Below are positions 3,237 to 12,707 of a stretch of 64,000 bases of DNA, piece after piece. The DNA is from Leucoraja ocellata (lineage: Eukaryota): positions 7,254,001 to 7,318,000 of the forward strand of contig JAWMAR010000070.1 of assembly GCA_036785375.1 (NCBI GenBank). The letters are read 5' to 3'. The stretch's first letter is position 1. The number at the start of each line of letters is the position of its first letter. The notes under the pieces are model-generated. The model was given only the letters and a program-made list of their open reading frames with translations, had not been told where the DNA came from and searched no databases. Both the position numbers and the translations under genes were made by a program.

Positions 3237-3746
3237 ATGGGACTGCAGAGATGGATAGGATTCATGGTCCTTGTGGAGATGGTGTGGCAAGTCTCCGCAA
3301 CTGGAACAGGTCCGATCTCCAGAGAATGGGGAGAGGAAGCAAACTTGGCCGGGTGGAACGCACGGGAGCCTCGACAAGTCAACAAACAAGATACTCCACA
3401 ATGCGGTGCTATATCAGCTTCGACCAAGTTACAATTCACGGATATAGAGACAAGCCAGGGTGGTTCTACTACGCTACCCTGTAAAGTACCCACAGGGAAG
3501 GATGGACCCAAGACTTTTGAGGTCACCTGGACTAAAGGGACGAAGACATTGGCCGTGTTTACTATAGGGAAAGGTGCCAATTATCCAGGGGGGGCCGGCC
3601 GCTGGAAGTTCAAGGAAACAAACGTGGATGAGACACGGGATGCCTCGTTGGTCATCAAGGGTTTACAGAAGAGTGATGTTGGGATGTATTCCTGCACTTG
3701 GCAAACGGGCAAAGATAAATGTAGACTAACTTCCAAGCTGTCATGA
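3237..3746 (+). CDS. Putative secreted single Ig V-set domain protein, copy 1 (signal peptide + pro-segment + V domain in one exon)
   Basis: Splice acceptor tttcacccacag ends at 3232 and ATG is at 3237. A hydrophobic N-terminus ends VSA, followed by an REPR motif. V-set hallmarks are TTLPC, VTW, RDASL and DVGMYSC. No transmembrane segment. Confidence 0.8.
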   Translation: MGLQRWIGFMVLVEMVWQVSATGTGPISREWGEEANLAGWNAREPRQVNKQDTPQCGAISASTKLQFTDIETSQGGSTTLPCKVPTGKDGPKTFEVTWTKGTKTLAVFTIGKGANYPGGAGRWKFKETNVDETRDASLVIKGLQKSDVGMYSCTWQTGKDKCRLTSKLS

Positions 3747-4149
3747 AGTAAAACCTCACACTGACCCAGCACAGGCCCCCCCCATGTCACAGAAGCAACA
3801 GGCAGTGGCAGGACAGCAGAAACACACAATAACATCCATCATTATAAACTTCACACACTTAGACCAACAACAGCATTCTATATTGTAGTCACTTAATTGA
3901 TCATGAGGGGAATAGAGGGGTGAACACAAAACATCTTTTACCTGGGGTACGGGAATCAAGAACCAGGGGGACATAAGTTTAAGGTTAGAGGGGCAAGATT
4001 TAATAGGAACCTGAGGGGCAACATTTTCACTCAGGGGGCGGTGGGTTTATAGAACTGTCTGGTGGGGTGGGAATTGTAACAATATTTAATACACACTTGG
4101 GACAGGGAAAGGTTTAGGGGGATATGGGGCAAATGTAGTGCAATGGGAC

Positions 4150-4400
4150 AGATCGTGCTTGCATCGGTAAATGTATCATTAATGGAAATAAACTCTCTTG
4201 AAGACAGCCGGTGTGAGTGATTCTTTGTACGCCAGCATTGAGTTGGGTGTGAACTTTGTGCAACTCTTGCTCACTACGGGCAACATCGCCGGCTTCTATG
4301 AGCTGTGTCCAACATTGTCCATGACCACACGGGGACGGAACAACATGTGGAAAATCAGGAGTCCGCAGATGTTGAGAACAGGAACAAAAATAACGGGGAA
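4150..4400 (+). terminator. Conserved 3' module with poly(A) signal for Ig-V copy 1
   Basis: AATAAA at 4187-4192 followed by GT-rich sequence. Near-identical copies lie downstream of copy 2 (11415-11670, minus) and at 63800-64000 (minus). Confidence 0.55.
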
Positions 4401-4841
4401 TGTTGTCAGGAACAAAACAGGGACAAAAGTAAAGACTATATTTAAGAGGGAGTTAGATGTGGCCCTTGTGGCTAAAGAGATCAGGGGGTATGGAGAGAAG
4501 GCAGGTACAGGATACTGAGTTGGATGATCAGCCATGATCATATTGAATGGCGGTGCAGGCTCGATGGGCCGAATGGCCTCTACTCCTGCACCTATTTTCT
4601 ATGTTTCTTTGACACAAAAGTAGGCGGTTTTGCATGTGCAGGACCTACACAGTGAATAGTCCAGCTCTGGGGAATGTTGTAGAGCAGAGGGATCTATGAG
4701 TGAAGGTACATGGTTCCTTGAAGATGCAGTTGCAGGTAGATACGGTGGTCAAAAAGGCTTTTGGCACTTTGGCCTTCATCAGTCACAGTATGGAGTATAG
4801 ATGTTGGGAGGTCATCTTGCGTTGGTGAGGCAACAGTGAGT

Positions 4842-5880
4842 CAGGTACATGGAGAGGACAGGTTTGGAGGGATATGGACCAAACACAGGCAGGTGAGACT
4901 AGTGTAGCTGGGACATGTTGGCCAGTGTGGGCAAGTTGGGCCGAAGGGCCTGTGTCCACACTGTATCACTCTATGACTCTATTACACTATGACATTAAAT
5001 AAATAATGATTACAAAATGAAACTCCACATAAATCCCATCTTCTCCTCTGGCTGTCTACACAACACACGCATTGACTGCAGCAGATACAATGAATGTCAC
5101 ACTGGGGGTACCAGGGCACCTCTGGAAAATGTTCTTCTCAAGATGTGATTGAGAAGATGATGTAACATAGAACATGGAACAGCACAGGAACAGGCCCTTC
5201 GGCCCACATGGTCCGTGCTGAACATGATGCCAAGTTCAGCTAATCTCCTCTGCCTGCACCTGATCCATAATCTCAATTCCCTGCATATCCATGAGATTTT
5301 TTAGATAAAGACCCTGAACTATTGTATCTGCCTCCACCACCCACAGCATCGTGTTCCAGGCACCCACCACCCTCTGTGTCCAGCACATCTTTAAATGTTT
5401 CCTATCTCAATAGACAATAGACAATAGGTGCAGGAGTTGGCCATTCGGCCCTTCGAGCCAGCACCGCCATTCACTGTGATCACCGCCATCCACAATCAGT
5501 ACCCCATTCTTGCCTTCTCCCCATATCCCTTGACTCCGCTATATTTAAGAGCTCTATCTAACTCTCTCTTGAAAGCCTCCTACCCTAAAGCGATGCCCTC
5601 TAGTCTTTGGCATTTCCACTCTGCGCAAATTGGTTCTGACTGTCTACCCTATCTGGCTCTCATAGAAACATAGAAACATAGAAATTAGGTGCAGGAGTAG
5701 GCCATTCGGCCCTTCGAGCCTGCACCGCCATTCAATATGATCATGGCTGATCACCCGACTCAGTATCCAGTACCTGCCTTCTCTCCATACCCCCTGATCC
5801 CTTTAGCCACAAGGGCCACATCTAACTCCTTCTTAAATATAGCCAATGATTTGGCCTCAAATATCTTCTGTGGCAGAGAA
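4842..5880 (-). repeat. Right arm of inverted segmental duplication (partner 1142-2300)
   Basis: Reverse complement of the left arm. The CR1 is uninterrupted here (ggaattctctgcc on the minus strand). Confidence 0.85.
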
Positions 5881-6180
5881 TTCCACAGATTCACCACTCT
5901 CTGTGTGAAAAATGTTTTTCTCATCTCAGTCCTAAAAGATTTCCCCCTTATCCTTAAACTGTGACCCCTTGTCCTGGACTTCCCCAACATCGGGAACAAT
6001 CTTCCTGCATCTAGCCTGTCCAACCCCTTAAGAATTTTATTACCTTCTGTCAGGTCTCCGCTCAACATCTGAAGTTCTAGAGAAACCAATCCAAGATTAT
6101 CCAACCTGTCCATATAACTTGCTATTGAGGGAGTGCAACGTAGGTTCACCAGGTTAATGCCCGGGATGGCGGGACTGACA
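5690..6180 (-). mobile_element. CR1-type LINE 3' fragment
   Basis: Translation RTRGHSLRIRGKSFRTEMRKTFFTQRVVNLWNSLP is the typical CR1 ORF2 C-terminus; tttctatg tail repeats follow. Confidence 0.85.
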
Positions 6181-10903: not shown

Positions 10904-11217
10904 TGGCCCTGTCCCACGGTACGAGTTCATTCCAAGAGCTCTCCCGAGTTTGCCCTGATCTGAACTCGGAGATTTACGGTAATGGCCGCTCGTCGGTACT
11001 CGGGGCTCTCGTGGACTATTATCAACAGGTTGAAAAATCTTCACGAGTCTTCCCGTGCTTACCTGCCGTTAGCGAGTCTTCCTGAGTACCTGCCGTTAGC
11101 GTTACAAGCCGCTAAGAGACGTCCCCGTTCCGTTCATTCTCCGTGCTTATCACGAGTTTGATTTTTTTTAAACTTGAGAGAGCTCTTGGGATGAACTTGT
11201 ACCGTGGGACAGGGCCA
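10904..11217. mobile_element. PIF/Harbinger-type MITE
   Basis: ~48-bp TIRs tggccctgtcccacggtac.../...gtaccgtgggacagggcca flanked by a TAA duplication (10901-10903 and 11218-11220). Confidence 0.8.
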
Positions 11218-11414
11218 TAAGGATTTCATAGTCCCATTTTTGGTACATACGACAATTAAACACTCTTGACTCTAGACTCTTGACACCTGAGACCATATGA
11301 TCCACCTAACTTCAACGATAAACATCCTCTCTTGCCCGGTTCTGTTGAAGGATCTTCTGAAACGTTGCCTCTGTTGCTCCCCCTCAGATGCTGCCTGACC
11401 CACTGTGTGTCTCC

Positions 11415-11730
11415 CACATTCCCCTTTATTTTTGTTCCTGTTCTCAACATCTGCGGACTCCTGATTTTCCACATGTTGTTCCGTCCCCGTGTGGTCATGG
11501 ACAATGTTGGACACAGCTCATAGAAGCCGGCGATGTTGCCCGTAGTGAGCAAGAGTTGCACAAAGTTCACACCCAACTCAATGCTGGCGTACAAAGAATC
11601 ACTCACACCGGCTGTCTTCAAGAGAGTTTATTTTCATTAAACGTACGTTTACCGGTGCAAGCAAGGTCAGTTCTCCTCACTGCATGCGATCCACGCTCAC
11701 ACCTTCCACGCTGCTCATCTTTATACCTTT
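11415..11730 (-). terminator. Conserved 3' module with poly(A) signal for Ig-V copy 2
   Basis: AATAAA on the minus strand at 11627-11632; reverse complement of 4150-4400. Confidence 0.55.
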
Positions 11731-12197
11731 ATTATTCCCTACTTGGTGTGATAGCACGAAAACAGGCCCTTCAGCCCAACTCGCCCATGCAGACCCATAT
11801 ACCCCATCTAAGCCAGTCCTCAGCCACCCCATCAAATAATTCCTATCCATGGATCCATCCAAGTGTCTATTAAATGTTGTTTTAGTGCCTGCCTCCACTG
11901 CCTCCTCTGGCAGCTCGTTCCATACACCCACCACCCTCTGAGAGTAAATGTTGCCCCTATTTATATAGAGTTTGCACGTTCTCATTGTGGATGGTTTTGT
12001 GTATGTTTGCAGGTTAATTGGTCAGTGTAAATTGTCCGTAGTGTGTGGGACAGAACTGGTGTATGGGGTGATCACTGGTCCCCATTGACTCTGTGGGCCA
12101 AAGGGCCTGTTTCCCTGCTGTACCTCTGAACTAAACTACACTAAACTAGACTTTGCTACTGACCCTGGGGCGGGCCCTGTTGAATGAGTGGAAGCTT

Positions 12198-12707
12198 TCA
12201 ATCCATTAACAGCCAGGTCTCTTCTTCACAATTCCCTTGATTATAAGTGGTCCAAATGCAGGAATATATCGCCTCATCGTCCTCTTGTGCCCGTGTCAGG
12301 AGCAACGAGGCGTCCCGATGCAGGATGACGTTTTGATGCACGAACCACCGATGGGCATCAGACCTTTGATAATTCGCAAAGGTCCTATATGTGGCAATGG
12401 AAACACCATCTTTACTCCACGAAACAGAGGTCAGTGCACCGTAATTTTCGGATATTTTACAGTACAGCGTTACAGAACTACCCGGAGATGCAATGATCAC
12501 ATTATGTCTAGTTATGACAGGCTGACCTAGCCTGCCCTGGCAGTCTGGAAACCGATCTTCATTGACCTGCCGAGGCTCCCGTGCGTTCCACCTGGGCAAG
12601 TTTGCTTCCTCTCCCCATTCTCTGGAGATCGGACCTGTTCCAGCTGCGGAGACTTGCCACACCATCTCCACAAGGACCATGAATCCTATCCATCTCTGCA
12701 GTCCCAT
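12198..12707 (-). CDS. Putative secreted single Ig V-set domain protein, copy 2
   Basis: Same acceptor and near-identical 46-aa prepro segment as copy 1. V-set hallmarks are SVTLYC, VSW, RDASL and DEAIYSC. Stop codon follows the G strand, with no TM segment. Confidence 0.8.
   Translation of the reverse strand: MGLQRWIGFMVLVEMVWQVSAAGTGPISREWGEEANLPRWNAREPRQVNEDRFPDCQGRLGQPVITRHNVIIASPGSSVTLYCKISENYGALTSVSWSKDGVSIATYRTFANYQRSDAHRWFVHQNVILHRDASLLLTRAQEDDEAIYSCIWTTYNQGNCEEETWLLMD

Follow-up and report, generated by a model that had tools for sequence, protein, structure and literature searches.

A multicopy family of lone V-set domains behind a shared promoter and leader in the skate Leucoraja ocellata

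The window analysed here is a 64,000-nucleotide (nt) stretch of the Leucoraja ocellata genome (GenBank assembly GCA_036785375.1, contig JAWMAR010000070.1, forward-strand positions 7,254,001 to 7,318,000). It contains two open reading frames (ORFs) of 169 residues apiece, gene 1 (3237-3746, + strand) and gene 2 (12198-12707, - strand), which were originally predicted to encode secreted immunoglobulin (Ig) V domains with a constant prepro region and a hypervariable mature part. Do they belong to a known Ig family, where does their V domain come from, and what holds one half of the protein constant while the other varies? The answer proposed here, which as a whole we give about an even chance of being right, is that both are members of a 59-copy skate family whose V domain likely derives from the first domain (D1) of a nectin/PVR protein and would be released as a germline-encoded set of soluble binders or decoys against microbes or parasites.

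Residues 1-46 of the two proteins are identical at 43 positions, i.e. they show the three differences first counted, and the estimate by eye of about 30% identity between the mature parts agrees with the aligned value of 31% (37/119 positions). Against a Pfam V-set cut-off of 26 bits the ORFs score 39.8 and 34, and AlphaFold2 gives a V-type fold for each, with a mean pLDDT (predicted local distance difference test) of 69.8 (full length) and 81.4 (mature part of gene 2); the leader is modelled as disordered (pLDDT <50 over residues 1-51 of the gene 1 model). The hallmarks of the V set in the Ig superfamily (IgSF), C82, W98, D147, Y151 and C153, do not vary in any of the 25 sequences aligned, which places the domain in that set. 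Equally invariant are C56 and C162, an extra cysteine pair that would join the N-terminus to the G strand; strand C has no cysteine. Both ORFs end at the G strand and, as first noted, contain neither a transmembrane segment nor a constant domain, and the same lone V is found in all 52 intact copies. The mature Ig domain is 123-144 residues long, with an isoelectric point (pI) from 5.0 to 10.0 across the family; gene 1 is basic (pI 9.4) and gene 2 acidic (pI 5.2). A one-base deletion near the stop (window 3740-3750) makes gene 1 end two residues before the rest of its subfamily.

How many such genes are there? A search with the shared leader, covering 614 kb of contig C70 and 50 kb of contig C16, found 59 copies, 57 of them on C70 and two on C16 (match counts within this genome being lower bounds). 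The prediction of a multigene, germline-diversified family is borne out, the pair first seen being two of these 59. On C70 the copies form an array spanning 525 kb with nested duplications of 97-99.8% identity. Intact copies number 52 of 59 and represent 41 distinct coding sequences (CDS) and 37 distinct proteins; the 41 CDS cluster into 25, 15 and 7 groups at 98, 90 and 60% mature identity, respectively.

The ORFs had been described as uninterrupted, which is true of the coding V exon; the genes, however, are not intronless. Each has two exons, a short exon 1 and then a single exon encoding signal peptide, propiece and lone V domain. Exon 1 of gene 1, which ends at 2687, joins on to an acceptor at 3231-3232, four bases 5' of the ATG, and the acceptor context recurs in 59/59 copies. 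When exon 1 is joined to exon 2, the result matches the N-terminus of eight Leucoraja models in RefSeq and likewise that of P0011; this protein, called on a Logan contig of 900 nt, crosses the junction. Because unspliced DNA runs into a stop right after exon 1, a spliced transcript is the most likely source of P0011. The 52 intact copies have 17 distinct 3' ends, none of them with a GTRAG donor close to the stop, and a conserved 3' block extends over 80% or more of its length in 20/57 array copies. The parts of the two genes, in window coordinates, are as follows.

2391..2588, + strand: gene 1 putative promoter block, with CCAAT boxes at ~2503 and ~2526 and TATAAAA at 2582-2588
2599..2687, + strand: gene 1 exon 1, upstream ATG up to the GTGAGT donor (2688); largely 5' untranslated region or an optional 31-residue extension
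2688..3232, + strand: gene 1 intron, 545 bp, with GT...AG ends
3237..3299, + strand: gene 1 predicted signal peptide, residues 1-21, ending VSA (hydrophobic core and small residues at -3/-1, by reading the sequence)
3300..3374, + strand: gene 1 propiece, residues 22-46, ending REPR (R-x-x-R motif, presumed cleavage site)
3375..3746, + strand: gene 1 mature four-cysteine V-set domain and stop codon (Pfam, AlphaFold2 model)
4148..4403, + strand: gene 1 conserved 3' block, 96% identical to its gene 2 counterpart, with AATAAA at 4187-4192, a likely poly(A) site
6715..7156, + strand: orphan 5' cassette (promoter and exon 1, V exon absent), its intron interrupted by retroelement-like ORFs
11416..11671, - strand: gene 2 conserved 3' block, shared with gene 1, with AATAAA at 11632-11627
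12198..12569, - strand: gene 2 mature four-cysteine V-set domain and stop codon (Pfam, AlphaFold2 model)
12570..12707, - strand: gene 2 predicted signal peptide and propiece, residues 1-46, 43/46 as in gene 1
12712..13297, - strand: gene 2 intron, 586 bp, with donor and acceptor motifs
13298..13594, - strand: gene 2 putative promoter (TATA at 13403-13397) and exon 1 (13386-13298), 98.9% identical to gene 1 over 465 bp

The intron of the orphan cassette is split by Gypsy-like reverse-transcriptase and protease-like ORFs (window 6715-8246; labelled by eye), and a second, duplicate orphan cassette lies at C70:7512370.

Which ATG starts the protein? That of exon 1 is in frame in 54/57 array copies (two are out of frame and one was not parsed) and out of frame in both C16 copies, the intact one included. 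As it lies in the frame of neither C16 copy, we take the ATG of MGLQ to be the conserved start. Were the exon-1 ATG used, the hydrophobic segment could act as a signal anchor, giving a membrane-tethered long form from which the V domain is shed at R-x-x-R. The extended frame is present in P0011 as well as in most of the array, but apart from its failure on C16 the ATG is absent in a Rhinoraja model and unrelated in Narcine (see below for both), it lies 17 nt past the start of the TATA box and so likely 5' of the main start site, and the hydrophobic segment is short and holds a Glu. A tethered form is thus most improbable.

The constant region had been put at 46 codons. The leader is indeed shared, but the shared block is far larger: at 97-100% identity it takes in the promoter, exon 1 and the beginning of the intron, and the acceptor as well as the leader. 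Averaged over all 57 array copies, identity is 99.2% for the promoter (2391-2581), 99.8% for the TATA box and exon 1, 98.6% for the first intron part and 99.1% for acceptor and leader; a fifth block, the 3' part of the intron, matches in 47/57. Synonymous divergence (pS) is 0.014 in the leader versus 0.29 in the mature part (780 pairs of distinct array CDS, which are not independent), and the median identity of the mature domains over the same pairs is 38%. The comparison of selection on prepro and V regions proposed at the outset gives a near-neutral leader (13 non-synonymous and 4 synonymous variants) and, as detailed below, a V domain under positive selection. The constant prepro is no evidence of constraint on the protein among paralogues: since synonymous, intronic and promoter sites are just as constant, gene conversion explains it better, and the whole pattern points to concerted evolution, most simply by that process. 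Homogenisation ends at about the predicted cleavage site in bins compared between subfamilies; within a subfamily the V regions diverge by 5-14% versus 0-4% for the flanks. In the C16 copies the cassette blocks have drifted to 89-97%. These two outlying genes (C16 1.775-1.787 Mb, L087-L088), one intact and one frameshifted, have a shortened propiece and a less homogenised cassette. On C70 a whole V subfamily (7119380, 7165062, 7207103, 7446113 and 7491516) is pseudogenised by a common frameshift before the F strand, and its 5' cassette is still 97-100% identical to that of intact genes. The V lineages themselves are older than the Leucoraja-Rhinoraja split, since the Rhinoraja protein P0009 clusters with the gene 2 lineage (bootstrap 97); its leader differs from that of its nearest skate copy at 5/46 residues. 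Inside one exon, the homogenised cassette gives way sharply to a V domain under selection, which offers a clean natural test of gene conversion as the source of the constant-leader, variable-mature pattern of toxin and peptide families.

Positive selection acts on the C/C'/C''/FG face of the domain. Pairs with a mature non-synonymous divergence (pN) of 0.05-0.2 have dN/dS of 2.2-2.8. Codon models (self-coded GY94 site models, with the tree fixed) prefer M2a to M1a for the two large subfamilies: the likelihood-ratio statistics are 30 and 79, and 34 and 91 once the 13 and 19 sequences are thinned to 7 and 10; omega at the selected sites is 4-16. In the second subfamily 14/20 selected codons fall in the BC-to-C'' and F-G segments, which make up 44/132 codons (p=0.0004). 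Hotspots of the AID type (WRC/GYW) are not enriched in V (p=0.85 and 0.69).

Is this a described immune receptor family? The original prediction recognised none among Ig, IgNAR, T-cell receptor (TCR), NITR and CD300, and each proved negative. Rearranging V segments carry recombination signal sequences 3' of V; the 59 copies have no site resembling them, so rearranging Ig and TCR segments are excluded. Ig, TCR and IgNAR genes are further marked by a J-type F/W-G-x-G in strand G, an octamer promoter, a leader intron and constant domains; in the skate genes the motif occurs in 0/52 and the octamer in 0/59 copies, leader and V share one exon, and a stop follows strand G. NITRs consist of V and I domains with a J-like motif, a transmembrane segment and a signalling tail, as against a single domain with no F-G-x-G and no donor near the stop. 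VCBPs are set aside because one V is followed by a stop with no splice donor, so that their V-V layout with a chitin-binding domain (CBD; PMC4757023, PMC2632668) is absent. CD300-type V domains have a second cysteine pair with a WCR motif in strand C (parts of PMC3031540); here neither C nor C' has an invariant cysteine, so the WCR-type pair is absent, which disposes of CD300, TREM, pIgR, MDIR and SITR. A transposable element or viral ORF was also rejected: matches are confined to the two loci, with counts that are lower bounds, only Ig-type Pfam families score above cut-off, and the promoter block matched only the V array (40 of 65 candidates scored). In a V-set search of this genome, 150 of 1893 candidates were scored and no family member was listed; it did show a very dense V-set exon array on C471, likely a TCR locus, and more arrays on C384 and C531.

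A parent family had not been recognised, and here the original prediction can be amended, because relatives and structure point to nectin/PVR D1. Uncharacterised RefSeq proteins of the same family, all automatic annotations, occur in Leucoraja erinacea (LOC129708937-42, -45 and -46), Rhinoraja longicauda (LOC144605155) and Narcine bancroftii (XP_069798310, 'nectin-1-like'), with mature identities of 82-99%, 64% and 36%, respectively. Word-based searches returned only seven skate clusters, and the Narcine query matched only itself. A profile search added one full-length match, Narcine P0082 (E 3.9e-22, a single stretch across the whole profile), among the best 150 of 2828; these were mostly multi-domain proteins, and shark or chimaera orthologues could lie beyond them. 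The four cysteines are all kept in the Narcine orthologue, as are the signal peptide (10/21 residues of the predicted peptide identical), PRQV and the propiece, which is acidic; it is again a lone V with no transmembrane segment. All 14 of its PDB matches are PVR or nectins, and in the present genome two nectin D1 exons are its only non-family matches. It also retains AX6G and TYP, AX6G being the lock and T(F/Y)P the key motif of nectin/PVR according to parts of PMC10486284 and PMC9263721. Among the first ten Foldseek rows for the gene 2 model nine are nectin-1 or PVR and one is nectin-3; CAR ranks first for gene 1. Comparison with nectin/PVR D1 structures gives Z 14.1-14.5 and a root-mean-square deviation of 1.6-2.1 over 99-104 residues. 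The ESM Atlas places the protein in generic V-set clusters by features and mostly in nectin clusters by structure. We consider it fairly probable that the V domain derives from nectin/PVR D1. The family is a derivative of that group and not a member of it, since the V-C-C ectodomain, transmembrane segment and cytoplasmic tail are missing from all intact copies and from Narcine.

How the product matures can be predicted in part. Convertases favour R-x-x-R and certain serine proteases Pro-Arg. R-x-x-R stands, as originally read, at the pro/mature boundary of 52/52 intact copies, so the motif for furin-type maturation is there; Narcine PRQV, however, lacks the P4 Arg, and a Pro-Arg-cutting serine protease is as plausible. 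The pyroglutamate N-terminus proposed for the mature protein could form in the 41/52 copies with Gln after the motif, and is not universal.

Several points weigh against the reading as a secreted, nectin-derived repertoire. Secretion, cleavage, tissue and ligand are themselves inferred. The Z-scores of nectin, CAR and TIM-2 lie within <1 of one another; AX6G is found in 14/52 skate copies and T(F/Y)P in 0/52; and a profile built from skate members alone gives the two skate nectin exons 26 bits, less than the 35-44 bits of unnamed V domains. As that profile has no preference for nectin exons, the nectin link rests on the Narcine protein and on structure. Blocks 99.4% identical and ~316 kb apart may be an uncollapsed haplotype, so the real haploid copy count may be about half of 59. 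Recombination can inflate site-model tests of selection; evidence for it within V from a PHI-like test is weak (p=0.024 and 0.16). Positive selection would suit reproductive proteins equally well. Finally, reads from RNA runs X7, X9 and X13 (1-6% of each) fell on repeats and gave no exon coverage except about one X13 leader read; mapping covered four of the 24 listed runs, these three and X1, and absence of coverage there is not silence. Run X1 behaves as DNA, its contigs continuing unspliced across donor and acceptor. They include promoter, leader and V pieces, and depths of 336 for the promoter contig versus 11-44 for V contigs hint at many copies without giving a copy number.

Could these be proteins of semen, clasper gland, oviduct or egg coat, driven apart by sexual selection or by recognition between gametes? 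The strength of positive selection and the expansion within a lineage would fit, the empty RNA runs would suit a narrow tissue, and nectins act at sperm-Sertoli junctions. But some 15 types at 90% identity in one genome would suit a recognition repertoire better than a single gamete ligand; we rate a reproductive role as possible though unlikely. That the array is non-functional or artefactual, or its variability the work of targeted hypermutation, seems close to negligible. The nested near-identical duplications, the RNA runs and the excess divergence of V over its flanks could be read in that way, but 52/59 frames are intact with all four cysteines, dN exceeds dS, eight RefSeq paralogues are present in an independent Leucoraja assembly, and the gene pieces in X1, the lack of WRC/GYW enrichment and the array-only promoter block all argue otherwise. 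A host-directed role, as soluble nectin-like ligands of receptors of the CD226/TIGIT/CD96 type or of each other (e.g. acidic with basic members), would draw on the nectin fold, the lock motif kept in 14 copies, the wide pI range and the existence of secreted CD155 isoforms, beta and gamma (in parts of PMC9263721). Loss of the key motif in 52/52 copies and omega of 4-16 are hard to square with fixed host partners, however, and make this very unlikely.

The repertoire reading must also account for where the genes lie. All 57 array copies are within the main GH18 chitinase cluster of the genome (C70 6.93-7.96 Mb), and four chitinase genes are inside the V-array span. The V proteins might then be one half of a split VCBP, co-secreted with chitinases and CBM14 proteins to act on chitin-rich mucus or chitinous parasites. 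PMC4757023 reports that VCBP V domains promote phagocytosis and that VCBPs bind gut chitin, which would favour this. Yet no splice link or fusion to CBM14 was seen, VCBP3 ranks 49th of 50 structural rows (Z 11.8 vs 14.5), on the contig of the two C16 copies the listed matches include neither GH18 nor CBM14, and adjacency may mirror only a duplication-prone region. We judge the split-VCBP explanation quite unlikely. As to the neighbourhood itself, the cluster (C70 6.93-7.97 Mb) holds 57 of 61 listed GH18 matches, the other four being on C4096. In the window, 16045-23861 (- strand) is a GH18 chitinase with DxxDxDxE intact and one CBM14 exon, while 43689-61316 (+ strand) is a GH18 gene with several CBM14 repeats and the motif D-G-L-D-L-H-W-E; with His for the second catalytic Asp, it is possibly a chitinase-like lectin. 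A BTG-family exon (L093:9031-9294, - strand; C70 ~6.883 Mb) borders the cluster; in humans BTG2 adjoins CHIT1. Two inverted five-exon CBM14 sets lie at C18 5.95-6.07 Mb, a contig with no listed GH18 match. A Pfam scan of 266 of 1000 flank ORFs showed only BTG, GH18, CBM14, PH and repeat domains, and no transmembrane-bearing parent gene.

How might such a repertoire have arisen? We propose that an ancestral batoid gene would have kept nectin D1 alone, losing its anchor and gaining a propiece and the disulfide from N-terminus to G strand, and that tandem duplication would then have enlarged the family within the chitinase cluster while gene conversion held promoter and leader uniform. The shared promoter and leader would mean that all copies are made in the same cell type, probably a restricted one, co-transcribed and passed to the secretory path; a convertase or Pro-Arg protease would release the V domain from its propiece, and the free domain would bind variable foreign ligands through the old nectin face, which an arms race would drive. 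A stronger version, that skates built from nectin D1 and a shared cassette a non-rearranging, antibody-like repertoire secreted by one cell type and released with the neighbouring chitinases, is tentative and rather unlikely; if true, it would be a jawed-vertebrate re-invention of barrier immunity of the VCBP type. Searches of an open-access library turned up no description of the family, and part of the text of PMC6795676 has nothing on such a family. It is an apparently undescribed, large immune-type family of cartilaginous fish, which among living jawed vertebrates are the oldest to have antibodies. It would show an adhesion-receptor domain, likely of the nectin/PVR type, a common virus receptor, turned into a soluble, diversified germline repertoire alongside Ig and IgNAR. 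Being small and likely to have a second disulfide, the domains might be used as a binding scaffold. Since the leader is shared, a single primer placed there would pick up almost every member, and tissue and ligand can thus be tested directly.

How does the family compare with known systems? In conotoxin, frog-peptide and snake PLA2 families a constant signal and pro region precedes a mature region that evolves at an accelerated rate. The skate genes have in common with these precursors the constant signal/pro region and non-coding DNA and the accelerated mature region; they differ in that the mature product is an Ig domain, with no evidence of toxicity or a venom organ, and nothing supports the venom component once suggested. 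Carp SITR, skate MDIR and CD300/TREM/pIgR are likewise multigene innate IgSF families, and macrophages secrete SITR in response to a parasite (PMC3031540, in part); SITR, however, has two domains, whereas the skate proteins have one, with the extra cysteine pair between N-terminus and G strand. With the D1 of nectin-1, nectin-2 and CD155 the family shares the V-set fold and, in the Narcine orthologue, the lock and key motifs, and soluble CD155 has been proposed as a poliovirus sink (sections of PMC9263721). Unlike nectin/PVR, it has one domain with no C domains, transmembrane segment or tail, a propiece and the extra cysteine pair; a single exon encodes both leader and V, the 59 copies are under diversifying selection, and the key motif is lost from every skate copy. 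The protochordate VCBPs, as described in parts of PMC2632668, are secreted, polymorphic, germline-encoded proteins whose cluster is shaped by gene conversion; the skate family resembles them in its germline V-domain proteins, in such a cluster, in its association with chitin genes and in predicted secretion. VCBPs, however, are V-V-CBD proteins with multi-exon V domains, whereas the skate genes encode one V and no CBD, and their link to chitin is genomic only.

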